A DNA stretch of 64,000 bases, from assembly GCA_001794635.1 (NCBI GenBank), contig MGKE01000011.1:20682-84681 (forward strand), given 5' to 3'. This stretch comes from Candidatus Yanofskybacteria bacterium RIFCSPLOWO2_01_FULL_39_28 (GTDB taxonomy: Bacteria > Patescibacteriota > Minisyncoccia > 2-02-FULL-40-12 > GWA2-44-9). The notes below the pieces were generated by a model. It did no database searches and was not told the origin of the DNA. It was given only the letters and a program-made list of their open reading frames with translations. Positions 44,881 through 48,232 of the stretch are shown here, in pieces (the stretch's first letter is position 1; every line of letters starts with the position of its first letter). Position numbers and translations under genes: made by a program.

Positions 44881-45903
44881 CTATGCTATCTTTTCTTGTT
44901 CTTTATTATCCCCTGTTTCCACAATATTTTTAACTCTATCAACCATTAAAGACAATCGTTTTTCAGTGTCTTCATAAGCTGACTTGGAATCCGAGATATG
45001 CTTGCCCAATTTTCGAAAATTTTCGCCAAGCTTGTCCCCGTCAGTGGCAATTCTGGCTAAACGCTGGATGATTTCTTTGGTCTGTTTTGAAAATTGGACA
45101 TCTTTGAACCAATGCATTATCGCCGAAACAGATAAAGCAAAAGTATTAGGCGAGACCATAAAAATCTTCTTTCCTCGCGCATAAGAAGGAATATCCACGT
45201 CTTTTATATTATTTATCAACTCGTAATAAACCGTCTCGGCCGGCACATACATCAAAGCTAAATCAGTTGTCCCCTCGGAAGGCAAAATGTATTTTGAGGC
45301 AATTTCGTCAATTTTTTTCTTAACATCTGAATAAAAACTTTTTCGGAAAACCTCTTTATCCATATCATTACCGGCATTCACCATCTTCTCAAAGTTGTCC
45401 CAGTTAAATTTGGCGTCAATCGGTAAAATCGTGCCATTGGGAAGTTTCAAGATAGCATCCACCGCTTCACCGGACTTGAAATAATATTGGGTATCATAAG
45501 CATCTTTAACAAAATATTGAGATAAGGCCGCTTCAAGCGACATTTCTCCCCATTGACCTCTTAACTTAGGGGAGCGCAATATATCCTGAAAAGAAGAAAC
45601 ATTTTTCACCGAATCGTGCATCTGCTTCATATTCTCGTGAAGCTGGGTCATGCCTTGAGTAAAACTCTGAACCTGCTGATGGACAGCCAATGATGCCCGT
45701 TCAGAAGACTGACGGTTTTGTTCAAGCTGCTTATTCATCAAGTTGGTAAAAGAATCCAGCCGCTGATGAAGAACCATATAATGACTGGCGTTATTATCGG
45801 TATTACGACGAGACTTCAACATATAAAAAAGATTGATTCCGACCATCACCAAAACAGCTCCAGAAACTACAGTCATTAAAACTAATAAAGGATTTATTTC
45901 CAT
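44881..45903 (-). CDS. rmuC: DNA recombination protein RmuC
   Basis: N-terminal TM plus coiled coil, then an RmuC nuclease-like C-terminal domain (RGQWGEMSLEAAL...). Confidence 0.8.
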   Translation of the reverse strand: MEINPLLVLMTVVSGAVLVMVGINLFYMLKSRRNTDNNASHYMVLHQRLDSFTNLMNKQLEQNRQSSERASLAVHQQVQSFTQGMTQLHENMKQMHDSVKNVSSFQDILRSPKLRGQWGEMSLEAALSQYFVKDAYDTQYYFKSGEAVDAILKLPNGTILPIDAKFNWDNFEKMVNAGNDMDKEVFRKSFYSDVKKKIDEIASKYILPSEGTTDLALMYVPAETVYYELINNIKDVDIPSYARGKKIFMVSPNTFALSVSAIMHWFKDVQFSKQTKEIIQRLARIATDGDKLGENFRKLGKHISDSKSAYEDTEKRLSLMVDRVKNIVETGDNKEQEKIA

Positions 45904-45934
45904 AACTTAATATAAACACAAAAACTAATTTTTG

Positions 45935-45972
45935 TGGACCCTACCGGGCTCGAACCGGTCACCTCCACATTG
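45935..45972 (-). tRNA. 3' half of an interrupted tRNA-Ala(UGC)-like gene
   Basis: Minus-sense sequence CAATGTGG-AGGTG-ACCGG-TTCGAGC-CCGGT-AGGGTCC-A supplies positions 36-73. The acceptor strand pairs with GGGCCCT at 46407-46413, including G3:U70. Confidence 0.7.
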
Positions 45973-45998
45973 TTCCGATAAATCAGGACGGGCCAGTG

Positions 45999-46070
45999 TG
46001 GACCGGAGGGGACTTGAACCCCTAACCTCTCGGATGCAAACCGAGTGCTCTACCGTTGAGCTACCGGCCC
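45999..46070 (-). tRNA. tRNA-Ala (anticodon UGC), intact, nested in the insert
   Basis: GGGCCGG-TA-GCTC-AACGGTA-GAGC-A-CTCGG-TTTGCAT-CCGAG-AGGTT-AGGGG-TTCAAGT-CCCCT-CCGGTCC-A, with a G3:U70 pair. Confidence 0.9.
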
Positions 46071-46109
46071 ATCCTGATTTATCGAGAATCCTCGATTTCT
46101 TAAATAATT

Positions 46110-46355
46110 TTAAAAATGTTTTATAACCTTTTCTATGGCACTTCTCTTTTTTAGTGACTTCAAATATACCTCTCTTTTTCTAGCCATAGCCAAAGTTTCA
46201 AACATTTCTTGATATACTTTTTTCCACGGCCTTTTATGTTTTGTTGACCTAACCTTGCCGCTATTGTGGCTACACATCCTTCTTTCTGAAACTTTTGATA
46301 TACCAATATAATATGTACCAAATTTTACTGATTCAAGAATATAAAGATAAAACAT
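46110..46355 (-). CDS. small GIY-YIG nuclease family protein
   Basis: MFYLYILESVKFGTYYIGIS... (GIY...YIG), ...KHKRPWK...E...R; 81 aa. Confidence 0.85.
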   Translation of the reverse strand: MFYLYILESVKFGTYYIGISKVSERRMCSHNSGKVRSTKHKRPWKKVYQEMFETLAMARKREVYLKSLKKRSAIEKVIKHF

Positions 46356-46378
46356 TTTTAAAATTATAGAAATCGGGA

Positions 46379-46413
46379 CAAACGTGGCGCTCTACCAAAT
46401 GAGCTAAGGGCCC
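46379..46413 (-). tRNA. 5' half of the interrupted tRNA-Ala(UGC)-like gene
   Basis: GGGCCCT-TA-GCTC-ATTTGGTA-GAGC-G-CCACG-TTTG supplies the acceptor, D arm, 5' anticodon stem and loop up to position 35. Confidence 0.7.
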
Positions 46414-46617
46414 AATATTATTTAAATCTCTAATCTCTAAGTCCCAATCTCTAAACAATCTCAAATATCTAAATTTTTAAAATATTTAATATTTAAGTTT
46501 TAAATTTGTTTAGAAATTAGATATTGGAAATTAGAAATTCCAGATAACTGGCTGGGCAATTATCTGGCATTATGTTACATTCTACCATAGATTCTTGACA
46601 TCTCAAAGGAGTAATTC

Positions 46618-46938
46618 ATGATCACCGTCACCCCGAAAGCGGCTGAAAGATTAAGGGAAATGATGGCTGAAGAAAAAAAGAATTTCTTAAGAGTTTATGT
46701 CCAAGGAGGCGGTTGCTCCGGATTCCAATACGGCCTGATGCTTGATGAGGGTCCGGGTTCTGAGGGTGAACTTTTTGATTCAAATGGAATAAAATTGCTT
46801 GTTGACCCCATAAGTATCAGTTACTTAAAAGATGCCGAGGTTGATTTTGAAGAAAATTCAACTGGTGGCGGATTTACCATTAAAAATCCCAACGCTAAAT
46901 CAACTTGCGGCTGTGGATCATCATTCAACACTGAATAA
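46618..46938 (+). CDS. HesB/IscA/ErpA-family iron-sulfur cluster insertion protein
   Basis: GGGCSGFQY ... STCGCGSSF motifs; AAAGGAG SD. Confidence 0.9.
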   Translation: MITVTPKAAERLREMMAEEKKNFLRVYVQGGGCSGFQYGLMLDEGPGSEGELFDSNGIKLLVDPISISYLKDAEVDFEENSTGGGFTIKNPNAKSTCGCGSSFNTE

Positions 46939-46941
46939 GCC

Positions 46942-47295
46942 ATGACTGACATGAACCCACCTCTTGTCTCTTTGACTCCGAAAGCGGTTGAATATATAAA
47001 TAGGTTATTTGAAAAAGAAGGTATCAAGCCTCCACCCGGAGGAATCCGTTTTCAAGTCAAAGCCGGAGGATGCCATGGTTTTGAATGTGTTCATCAATTA
47101 GTCCGAACTGATGACCGCCATGACATGATTATAATCTCCCACGGAGTTAGAATTCTTATTGATCCCAAGAGTGCCAAAATTTTAAATGGTACTATTGTAG
47201 ATCACCCTGAAAATCTTATTGAAAAAGGATTGACGTATAATATCCCAAATTCTACTTCCTGCGGTTGCGGCACATCATTTGAAATAAAAAAATAA
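46942..47295 (+). CDS. second HesB/IscA-family protein
   Basis: AGGCHGFEC ... TSCGCGTSFE motifs. Confidence 0.85.
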   Translation: MTDMNPPLVSLTPKAVEYINRLFEKEGIKPPPGGIRFQVKAGGCHGFECVHQLVRTDDRHDMIIISHGVRILIDPKSAKILNGTIVDHPENLIEKGLTYNIPNSTSCGCGTSFEIKK

Positions 47296-47303
47296 TCCCA
47301 CAT

Positions 47304-47987
47304 TTAGTGGGATTTGTTTTTATCAAAAAATATACTGAGGTTACCAAGCAGAGTCAAAAAGTTTTTAAATTTGAGACGTTCCTCTTCCAGTCGGCCGTTC
47401 TGGCAAAAAATAATGTCAGTAACATTATAATGCCAGCCCTTTATCCCCAGACCACAGGCAACCTCAATATTCTTCCTGGAATCGTCAACAAAAACACATT
47501 CTTCTGGTTTTAAACCAAGTTGTTCAATAGGCCTAATCCAGGCTTCCGAGTCGGGTTTGGCTACCCCCTCTCGTGAGGAAATCATTAAATAATTGAAACT
47601 TTCAAAAACTTCCGGGTGACGCTCTGTAACACATTTATCATGAAAAGGATTTAGATTAGAAATCAAGACAGTGGCCAGACCTCTTTGTTTTAAATCTTTA
47701 ACAATCTTGAACATTTCATCGTCAATAACGAAATTACTCCCAAATTCTTCAAAAAAATCTCCTTGATTAGGAATACTCATCCGATAAGCCAGTCTTATTT
47801 GCGAGTAAAATTCTGTTTCATTAATCCTGCCTAAGTCAAAATCTTTGACAAGGTGGGCTATTGCACCCGAAAATATTTCATGAGGTTCAAGACAATTTCC
47901 ACGATATTTATTAATAAACCTATACCAGCGAGGTGTATCAAAAATACCCAAAACATTGCCGAAATCAAACATTGCGCATCTTATCAA
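47304..47987 (-). CDS. HAD-superfamily hydrolase
   Basis: N-terminal AMFDFGNVLG motif I-like sequence, then ...VLISN..., ...VFVDDSRKNI. Confidence 0.7.
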   Translation of the reverse strand: MIRCAMFDFGNVLGIFDTPRWYRFINKYRGNCLEPHEIFSGAIAHLVKDFDLGRINETEFYSQIRLAYRMSIPNQGDFFEEFGSNFVIDDEMFKIVKDLKQRGLATVLISNLNPFHDKCVTERHPEVFESFNYLMISSREGVAKPDSEAWIRPIEQLGLKPEECVFVDDSRKNIEVACGLGIKGWHYNVTDIIFCQNGRLEEERLKFKNFLTLLGNLSIFFDKNKSH

Positions 47988-48157: not shown

Positions 48158-48232
48158 TGGTGGGTGCGGTAGGAATCGGACCTACGGCCTCGTTCTTATC
48201 AGGAACGCGTTCTACCACTGAACTACGCACCC
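48158..48232 (-). tRNA. tRNA-Ile (anticodon GAU), CCA encoded
   Basis: GGGTGCG-TA-GTTC-AGTGGTA-GAAC-G-CGTTC-CTGATAA-GAACG-AGGCC-GTAGG-TCCGATT-CCTAC-CGCACCC-A-CCA. Confidence 0.9.

Follow-up and report, generated by a model that had tools for sequence, protein, structure and literature searches.

A tRNA-Ala gene in a 64,000-nucleotide (nt) stretch of contig MGKE01000011.1 from Candidatus Yanofskybacteria bacterium RIFCSPLOWO2_01_FULL_39_28 (the whole stretch is called the window below) is split in its anticodon loop by a 406-base-pair (bp) cassette that carries a small GIY-YIG nuclease gene and a second, intact tRNA-Ala gene. Probably, the cassette is a selfish element acting at the DNA level, which inserts into an essential gene and supplies a replacement for it, leaving the outer halves of the interrupted gene as relics. 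The case is built on the anatomy of the element, its defined ends, the consensus of its target, covariation within its hairpins, the constant presence of a replacement copy, nesting, decay of the outer shell, and purifying selection on the open reading frame (ORF), all of which are established by the comparisons presented here. That the element is driven by its nuclease is something we infer by analogy. The cassette belongs to a family of elements that is widespread and apparently undescribed.

A split tRNA-Ala gene and the cassette inside it

All of the features described in this section are read on the minus strand of the window. The 5' half of the outer tRNA-Ala(UGC) (46379..46413; GGGCCCTTAGCTCATTTGGTAGAGCGCCACGTTTG) spans tRNA positions 1-35 and ends in ...CCACG TTTG, while the 3' half (45935..45972; CAATGTGGAGGTGACCGGTTCGAGCCCGGTAGGGTCCA) spans positions 36-73 and is composed of CAA TGTGG AGGTG ACCGG TTCGAGC CCGGT AGGGTCC A. 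Both are as clean as an earlier reading, made from the sequence alone (the sequence-only reading), had described them. ARAGORN calls their join (46413-46379 plus 45972-45935) as a 73-nt canonical tRNA-Ala(UGC), which agrees with the cloverleaf and the G3:U70 pair proposed in that reading; all four arms are fully paired, the D and T loops are normal, and the usual invariant bases are present. If the region is left unjoined, the inner tRNA-Ala(UGC) at 45998-46070 is the sole tRNA that ARAGORN calls. The junction of the outer exons reads …CCACGUUUG/CAAUGUGG… (here and below, a slash inside a sequence marks the joint). At the 5' joint, G is the last base of the exon and T the first base of the insert; at the 3' joint, the insert closes with A and the exon opens with C. 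On neither side do exon and insert share a base along which the joint could slide, which fixes the insertion between G35 and C36 (position 35/36). This point is the center of the anticodon-loop palindrome TTG/CAA.

The insert (45973..46378) is made up of two adjoining hairpin units, A and then B. Unit A (46378-46089) runs TCCCGAT...ATCGAGGA and carries in its loop the ORF for an 81-amino acid (aa), single-domain GIY-YIG nuclease (46110..46355). The 5' arm (46347..46378; TCCCGATTTCTATAATTTTAAAAATGTTTTAT) holds the start codon (46355-46353), and the 3' arm (46089..46124; ATAAAACATTTTTAAAATTATTTAAGAAATCGAGGA) holds the stop codon (46112-46110). Both codons had been placed within inverted repeats from sequence alone, and they are indeed enclosed by a pair that measures 21 nt at 100% complementarity (46104-46124 and 46347-46367) with an extension of 13 nt at 85% (46093-46105 and 46363-46375). 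Unit B (46088-45973) runs TTCTCGAT...ATCGGAA, and its loop carries the intact inner tRNA-Ala(UGC) (45998..46070), which is recognized by ARAGORN and by the Rfam tRNA model (72.1 bits, E value 3.3e-15) and is presumably the working gene. Pairing of the 5' arm (46071..46088; TTCTCGATAAATCAGGAT) runs into the first 7-8 nt of the inner tRNA, and the 3' arm (45973..45997; ACTGGCCCG TCCTGATTTATCGGAA) includes an "anti-acceptor" stretch complementary to the 5' end of that tRNA. The inverted repeat said to frame the inner tRNA is real and extends over 22 nt at 91% (45976-45997 and 46063-46084). The foot of hairpin B is TTC…GAA in the window and TCC…GGA elsewhere. The 406 bp therefore hold two nested modules, as had been suggested, with the ORF in one long hairpin and the intact tRNA-Ala in a second.

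Folded as single-stranded DNA, the 479 nt of the split gene reach -80.1 kcal/mol compared with -43.7 ± 4.8 for shuffled sequences (z = -7.6), and none of 100 shuffles attained an equal energy. In this fold, the outer cloverleaf arms enclose hairpin A with the ORF and hairpin B with the inner tRNA, and the ends of the insert pair beside the anticodon stem, a pairing that the sequence-only reading had anticipated. Outside the element, TCCCGATTT and AAATCGAGGA are no commoner in the window than expected by chance.

The 81-aa protein matches the Pfam GIY-YIG family (PF01541) over residues 1-71 with an E value of 1.9e-12, its sole Pfam match, and an NCBIfam search with it found no family. The GIY/YIG tyrosines, R26, H30, N31, and E62 are conserved in 10 homologues, and Y5, Y16, G18, R26, H30, N31, and E62 are invariant or nearly so, in keeping with the GIY-YIG superfamily. 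Between loci, the dN/dS of the ORF is 0.13-0.43. Given the invariant catalytic residues and these ratios, the ORF is functional and under purifying selection while it is intact. Among solved structures, the profile comes closest to the UPF0213 proteins 1ywl (2.4e-13) and 1zg2, followed by SLX1. In a library of 1.84 billion proteins, the profile matched 19,412 cluster representatives, 4,592 of them at E<=1e-10 and nearly all of them 80-130 aa long.

Two types of intron were considered and rejected. The 5' exon of a group I intron has U as its last base, paired to G in P1, and the last base of the intron itself is G; here, the 5' exon ends ...TTTG and the insert ends ...CGGAA. The sequence outside the ORF and inner tRNA amounts to only 87 nt with no match to the Rfam Intron_gpI covariance model, by which the P3-P9 core would be recognized, in line with the earlier judgment that there is too little room for a group I core. 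Searches with cmscan against Rfam returned only tRNA-type matches, both across 45000-47500 at E<=10 and across five related loci at E<=1. The archaeal and eukaryal bulge-helix-bulge motif has two 3-nt bulges with the splice sites, 4 bp apart, whereas the two junctions of the insert face one another across the foot of an uninterrupted helix. Two further identities do not fit the content of the insert. The GIY-YIG gene is the sole Pfam-matched ORF, leaving no HUH Y1 transposase (TnpA), and an integrase-type tRNA island, with its tyrosine or serine recombinase gene and att duplication of the tRNA 3' end, is not what is seen in an insert that holds only this ORF and a tRNA.

A true intervening sequence of some other kind would be processed by factors of the host or of the element, for example through cuts at the hairpin feet and RtcB-type ligation, and this would restore the outer tRNA-Ala and release the inner tRNA. 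The perfect outer halves of the window and the ability of the insert ends to pair beside the anticodon stem are what such splicing would predict, and the outer halves at three related loci (L001, L011, and L016) still fold as tRNA-Ala after removal of the insert. Patescibacteria are also rich in tRNA introns, including ones at position 35/36 (Nakagawa et al. 2026, PMC13011429). Nevertheless, the insert has neither a ribozyme core nor a bulge-helix-bulge motif, and it always comes with a replacement copy that a spliceable intron would not need. With the decay of outer halves and the DNA-like conservation described below, splicing is a very unlikely explanation of the locus.

Recurrence, nesting, and decay in related loci

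A protein search found nine relatives of the nuclease at 52-99% identity, all from Patescibacteria or groundwater metagenomes. The contigs read were P0001-P0004 and P0008, plus the Patescibacteria-type loci L017-L022 of ten from a genome scan. In every one, a tRNA-Ala 5' half that ends …TTTG stands on one side of the ORF and an intact tRNA-Ala on the other, and those contigs that continue have a 3' half beginning CA… after the intact tRNA. Further copies of the inverted-repeat-flanked GIY-YIG module, which the sequence-only reading had proposed to look for in related genomes, thus exist in the same nested tRNA-Ala architecture. Because this architecture recurs in at least 10 independent loci from other organisms, chance is excluded. 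The neighboring genes differ, with dnaK-dnaJ at L001, ddl at L013, tRNA-Lys at L016 and L021, and an IS66 transposase at L010; the last, an IS66-family gene at 323-1690, lies immediately upstream of the cassette copy.

Across these loci, every interrupted tRNA-Ala encloses an intact tRNA-Ala, and in the stretch from the tRNA halves or fragments to the intact tRNA, no ORF other than the GIY-YIG gene was called with a Pfam match. All of the tRNA-Ala loci share the 35/36 insertion site, and the same insert ends and junction are found in L001, L011, L016, L017, L019, L020, L021, and L166. With the inserts removed, ARAGORN reads the outer halves of L001, L011, L016, and L021 as tRNA-Ala(UGC). The order within the insert is constant: the 5' arm of hairpin A (TCCCGAT… or TTCCGAT…), the ORF, the 3' arm of hairpin A (…ATCGAGGA), the 5' arm of hairpin B (TYCTCG…), the inner tRNA, and the 3' arm of hairpin B (…CGGRA). 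The arms vary in sequence from locus to locus and keep their complementarity, including at the foot of hairpin B.

These findings bear on the possibility that two tRNA-Ala genes and a nuclease gene were simply juxtaposed by ordinary rearrangement or mis-joined during assembly at repeated tRNA sequence. Repeated tRNA-Ala segments do break assemblies, and L010, L017, and L019 end inside the element. However, the window region is identical in contigs from at least nine independent assemblies and samples (it matches assembly GCA_001794285.1 and many Rifle-type samples), the same precise junctions are seen in many organisms, and the halves join at single-nucleotide precision into a canonical tRNA. 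An artefact of this sort is extremely improbable.

The outer shell is found in various stages of decay. The outer 3' half of L021 mispairs twice, as C·A in the anticodon stem and as C·C in the T stem, and L020 lacks this half. The ORF of L016 is frameshifted, and in L013/L018, the outer gene has further insertions and a disrupted 3' part. Nesting reaches two to three levels in L017 and L019, where the tRNA-Ala of the cassette has itself been split by a second cassette whose ORF is deleted or reduced to its two ends.

The RmuC homologues of the window place it with Yanofskybacteria-like Parcubacteria, and loci of two relatives that keep the iscA…rmuC synteny of the window extend this series. 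L166-168 (RmuC 84% identical) have the outer 5' half, an ORF-less hairpin A, and a hairpin B with an intact tRNA-Ala, followed by an outer 3' half that is both degenerate and truncated and continues into a terminator. L161-163 (RmuC 86% identical) have lost the ORF, and their outer 5' half has decayed. From the leader through the outer 5' half to the start of hairpin A, L161 is colinear with 46598-46358 of the window (69.7% over 257 nt). The first inner tRNA of L161 is broken, and a second cassette supplies a live tRNA-Ala along with a different, 79-aa GIY-YIG gene. This live tRNA-Ala is uninterrupted and of the sequence type of the outer tRNA of the window. The sequence-only reading had called for an uninterrupted copy of the outer tRNA in relatives, and the outcome is divided: a live gene of the outer type exists in syntenic L161, and no empty site was found among nine contigs from the population of the window itself. 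Two other relatives by RmuC (L156 at 91% identity and L158 at 85%) have no tRNA-Ala at the corresponding position.

Decayed or missing outer halves, as in L020, L021, L161, and L166, are hard to reconcile with splicing. The sequence-only reading had left the choice between a nuclease-associated element that targets a tRNA gene and brings a substitute and an unusual processed intervening sequence. The replacement, decay, nesting, and history of L161 favor the first, and the second is disfavored by the same comparisons and by the lack of a ribozyme core or bulge-helix-bulge. With neither its ORF nor its outer halves damaged, the window seems to represent a recent stage in a recurrent process.

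Pieces of the element have also been exchanged between lineages. Hairpin B and the inner tRNA are 100% identical between the window and L017 over 101 nt, compared with 88.6% in the ORF region, a pattern that reads as a mosaic.

Several observations in these loci stand on their own. The live tRNA-Ala of L161 (517-591) has the T loop TCCGAAC, with C rather than U at position 55, and the dead 3' fragment downstream of it reads TTCGAAC. In L164 (RmuC 89% identical), a different, 102-aa GIY-YIG gene (1327-1635) lies directly upstream of rmuC with no tRNA nearby. At 3690-3715 of L001, about 330 nt downstream of the element, a stray …CGGAA/CAATGTGGA is identical to the 3' junction of the window and looks like a remnant of an older outer shell.

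The surroundings of the element in the window include an A+T-rich leader upstream of the outer tRNA (46411-46496) with loosely repeated …TCTCTAA… motifs, arranged as three 30-nt copies of 67-100% identity; a similar leader is found in L161. A promoter-like site on the minus strand (46579..46606; TTGAGA-16-TAGAAT with TG before it), found by consensus match only, lies about 165 nt upstream of the outer tRNA and is a candidate promoter for the whole unit. The genes for tRNA-Ile(GAU) and tRNA-Ala(UGC) are the usual occupants of the rRNA spacer. In the window, tRNA-Ile(GAU) (48158-48232) is separated from tRNA-Ala(UGC) (45935-46413) by a HAD hydrolase and two Fe-S cluster biosynthesis genes, and the pair does not adjoin rRNA.

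The two-hairpin module and its possible mobility

The two inverted repeats of the window are one conserved two-hairpin module. The outermost tRNA-Ala of L001, L013/18, and L017 carries in its D arm an 85-nt insert with neither an ORF nor a tRNA, of the form TCCCGA-N~31-TCGAGGATCCNCGA-N~30-TCGGGA. The conserved feet of both hairpins are strand-symmetric (TCC(N)CGA…TCG(N)GGA, twice), one base bulges from each hairpin at three pairs above the foot, and the inner lengths of the hairpins cluster at 29-31 nt. The module has no entry in Rfam, as judged from the scans of the window region and the five related loci. A pattern scan of metagenome contigs found at least 120 loci with it, and two pattern scans of viral contigs found no match. 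In its ORF-less form, the module is very widespread, and the system is restricted neither to tRNA-Ala nor to tRNAs. The statistics that follow cover 114 copies in metagenome loci among the matches listed; a GIY-YIG ORF is present in 16 of 104 loci among those matches.

Multiple features indicate that the module acts as DNA. Its conserved motifs read alike on both strands, such that most scan hits matched both. The arms are diverse (84 and 82 distinct 8-mers in 107 copies), and complementarity between arms averages 6.2 of 8 positions within a copy and 3.4 of 8 between copies. The flanks of 105 distinct copies show the symmetric preference T-W-G/C-W-A, 56% of them having G at -1 and 56% having C at +1. 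In tRNA-Ala(UGC), the anticodon loop TTG/CAA is an exact fit, and the choice of tRNA-Ala and of position 35/36 is explained by its being the preferred palindrome. The ends of the element are inverted repeats (TCCCGA and TCGGGA), and the tRNA-Ala insertions have no target duplication, where a classical IS or MITE would have one of fixed length; some intergenic copies have 7-9-bp flanking repeats and lie in repetitive DNA. The A/B junction TCGAGGA/TCCTCGA is a palindrome centered on GGATCC, and joining the ends as TCGGGA/TCCCGA would recreate that GGATCC-centered palindrome. Such strand-symmetric conservation is not required of a function in RNA, a further point against splicing.

The module is also found in gene fragments that splicing could not restore. 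Deleting it did not restore a tRNA across the junction in any of the 114 copies, so these modules lie in fragments. An intact tRNA that matches the interrupted fragment in identity follows 33 of the 114 copies within 420 nt, at distances of 16-400 nt, and each of these 33 modules occupies the D arm of a 5' duplicate, truncated, of the tRNA in question. Among the tRNAs are those for Lys, Asn, Arg, Met, Gly, Ile, Ala, Glu, Pro, Leu, and Phe. Distant GIY-YIG homologues have a related layout, lying between a truncated 5' tRNA copy with the module in its D arm and an intact tRNA; examples are tRNA-Pro in Bacteroidota (L023-25, 45-51% identical) and tRNA-Met in a Portnoybacteria metagenome-assembled genome (L026, 40% identical). 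Tandem arrays are found at L071 (three copies), L107 (two), and L146 (two). At L071 (5078-5600), a tRNA whose anticodon is UAU (Ile) has three tandem truncated 5' copies upstream of it, all with the module, and the same contig also carries a GIY-YIG ORF adjoining tRNA-Ala.

Many other copies lie within a few dozen nt of the start of housekeeping genes, identified by their N-terminal sequences. These include topA (L050, 3621-3706; L064, 7037-7123), tpiA (L047; L068, 127-212; L118), a trxB-like gene (L040; L102, 638-723), and leuS (L058, 11164-11247). The layout at protein genes is an old 5' fragment, the module, 6-20 nt more of the old copy, and then a complete new 5' end that continues into the gene. 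Flank duplication is statistically clear in 40 of the 114 copies. The old and new 5' copies differ mostly at synonymous sites (synonymous to nonsynonymous counts of 7:0 in L102, 8:1 in L064, and 7:2 in L050; the overall count of 61:39 includes leader positions and two false positives). It follows from these mainly synonymous differences that the two copies were functional genes of separate lineages while they diverged, and an origin of the displaced copies by tandem duplication in situ was set aside on the same grounds.

Two features seen in dead or displaced tRNA copies are recorded separately. A second small palindromic repeat family, CCTGCCTGC…GCAGGCAGG with variants, occurs in dead tRNA fragments beside the module (L013/L018 at ~1960-1980, L023 at 1362-1380, and the flanks of L066, L081, L089, L117, and L146). 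In some displaced tRNA copies, the whole anticodon arm has been replaced by a perfect short hairpin with a 3-nt loop, as in L107 (ATCCCGCGTACGCGGGAT) and at 446-460 and 868-882 of L161 (GTCGCC-AYA-GGCGAY).

A mechanism can be proposed for the selfish cassette. Its cis-acting part would be the two adjacent bulged hairpins, whose loops carry the cargo, the GIY-YIG gene in A and tRNA-Ala(UGC) in B. Insertion at the center of TTG/CAA would destroy the resident tRNA-Ala gene, and the cell would survive on the replacement tRNA, probably expressed from the resident tRNA promoter and released from the read-through transcript by RNase P and RNase Z. The split outer halves would be relics that decay later. 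Because the replacement carries the same target, re-invasion would be possible, giving Russian-doll nests and a serial turnover of tRNA-Ala at one locus. The GIY-YIG protein may cut the target, the hairpin feet, or both, probably in single-stranded or extruded DNA, and host recombination or ligation would complete the insertion. A circular or excised intermediate may exist, and its joined ends would read …TCGGGATCCCGA…. The ORF-less 85-nt copies seem to behave like non-autonomous derivatives, which would survive only in intergenic DNA or in displaced 5' tRNA or housekeeping fragments that have an intact copy downstream.

The suggested preference for single-stranded DNA comes by analogy with Ssn, a single-domain GIY-YIG nuclease of ~94 aa that binds hairpin repeats (NTS/SRM) and cuts only single-stranded DNA; Ssn genes are flanked by these repeats "like an IS" (Chenal et al. 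2025, Nat Commun, PMC11893778). The same precedent raises an alternative, that the hairpins and nuclease are a domesticated host system, controlling, like Neisseria NTS/SsnA, the uptake or recombination of transforming single-stranded DNA in the surroundings of tRNA and housekeeping genes. The split and duplicated gene pieces would then be by-products of recombination interrupted by the nuclease. Consistent with this proposal are the single-domain protein, the gene-flanking hairpin repeats, and the effect on transformation known for Ssn (PMC11893778), along with the mainly synonymous differences between displaced and working 5' ends (which imply recombination between lineages), the fixation of the element in the population of the window, and the very large size of the protein family (the 19,412 cluster representatives). 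A host system would, however, leave unexplained the sharply defined ends at a palindromic target, the cargo inside the hairpin loops, the nesting, and the repeated loss of the ORF. Repeated ORF loss is typical of the life cycle of homing endonucleases. Overall, a domesticated system is unlikely.

A number of results weigh against the selfish cassette as the preferred explanation. Neither an empty site nor a polymorphism in the presence of the element was found in the population of the window, where nine contigs from other samples, sharing the neighboring IscA-like (Fe-S biosynthesis) gene or a near-identical ORF, are 99.9-100% identical across the element. The outer halves in the window are flawless, and a spliced gene would look alike; we attribute their state to what may be a young insertion. 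The role of the nuclease in the element is assigned by analogy only, and the closest solved relatives of the protein are UPF0213 proteins and not a characterized Ssn. The SRM motif HGTCWYN(0-2)YYVSBRHN(0-5)WNVSBRGN(0-2)RNCYNB has no match in the window and none in the 114 modules with 15-nt flanks, using a regular expression that did recognize the NTS sequence in a control. GIY-YIG enzymes hydrolyze DNA and form no covalent intermediates, and therefore joining must be done by something else. Finally, the selfish cassette does not explain how the partial 5' duplications of the ORF-less type are formed.

Selfish elements are known to inhabit essential genes in two ways, by self-splicing (introns and inteins) and by restoring the end of the gene through an integrase att site. 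If the preferred reading is right, a whole spare gene in the loop of a terminal hairpin would be a third. It would explain the frequent adjacency of small "GIY-YIG nuclease family" genes to tRNA genes, the failure of tRNA finders to detect or correctly count the tRNA genes of reduced genomes, and the horizontal replacement of tRNA genes and of the first 40-60 nt of topA, tpiA, trxB, and leuS. It would also suggest that Ssn-type nucleases may originally have driven a mobile element, a matter that the Ssn paper leaves open (PMC11893778). Many natural nuclease and hairpin pairs could then be of use as single-stranded-DNA tools. A bolder proposal, which we offer tentatively and with some doubt, is that these elements form a new class of prokaryotic mobile DNA: bounded by a bulged hairpin pair, mobilized by a minimal GIY-YIG enzyme through single-stranded or cruciform DNA, inserted at the center of TWG/CWA sites in essential genes, and carrying or generating a working copy. 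Such a class would imply serial replacement and horizontal turnover of tRNA genes and housekeeping 5' ends in Patescibacteria and Bacteroidota.

Relation to known systems

In a full-text literature search, neither the nesting of tRNA genes by GIY-YIG cassettes nor this hairpin pair was found to have been described, and the sequence-only reading likewise knew of no described bacterial example of the nested architecture. The element can be classified as related to known kinds, namely homing-endonuclease-like selfish DNA and Ssn-type nuclease and hairpin elements. Like the homing endonuclease genes, whether free-standing or intron-encoded (I-TevI, phage T4 Seg), it places a GIY-YIG gene at one precise site of a conserved gene in many genomes. 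Both also have ORFs that cycle through intact, degenerate, and lost states and bear signs of movement from lineage to lineage. The cassette differs in having no ribozyme or intein, given that the carried copy rescues function at the DNA level. In addition, the protein has no DNA-binding domain for a long target, and the restored target can be invaded again.

The IS200/IS605 elements and the REP/BIME sequences with their RAYT proteins resemble the cassette in their bulged terminal hairpins and paired palindromic units, in having numerous non-autonomous copies, in inserting beside a very short target, and in a lifestyle that is likely to involve single-stranded DNA. In the case of the cassette, there is no HUH/Y1 transposase, a GIY-YIG enzyme cannot make the covalent intermediates of those systems, and the target is palindromic with insertion at its center. 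Phages and islands that integrate into tRNA genes likewise preserve function with a carried, duplicated piece. These elements have integrases, target the 3' end of the tRNA, and displace only the 3' segment, whereas here there is no integrase, the site is the anticodon loop or D arm, and the element carries a whole tRNA or is found with a new 5' part. The group I tRNA introns of Patescibacteria share the phylum, position 35/36, and the property of being missed by standard tRNA finders (PMC13011429). The cassette differs from them in its lack of a group I core, its wrong boundary nucleotides, and its embedded replacement tRNA; the paper on those introns covers group I introns only and leaves GIY-YIG unmentioned (PMC13011429).

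Ssn with NTS is the closest characterized system. Both have a small (about 80-100 aa), single-domain GIY-YIG protein without a DNA-binding domain, and at 81 aa with GIY-YIG only, the protein of the window is near the ~90-100 aa, with no extra domain, of Ssn. Inverted repeats that form hairpins flank the gene on both sides in each system, in the manner of an IS, and many copies of the repeats without an ORF occur elsewhere, at no fewer than 120 metagenome loci in the present case. The hairpin feet (TCCCGA or TCCGCGA...) resemble the dRS3/NTS core TTCCCGCG...CGCGGGAA, and the hairpin that replaces the anticodon arm in L107 resembles that core as well. The Ssn paper makes no mention of tRNA genes (PMC11893778). 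What sets the present element apart from Ssn is a fixed pair of ~43-nt bulged hairpins with cargo in their loops and repeats that lie inside genes and not only around them, tied to a replacement copy of the gene they interrupt.

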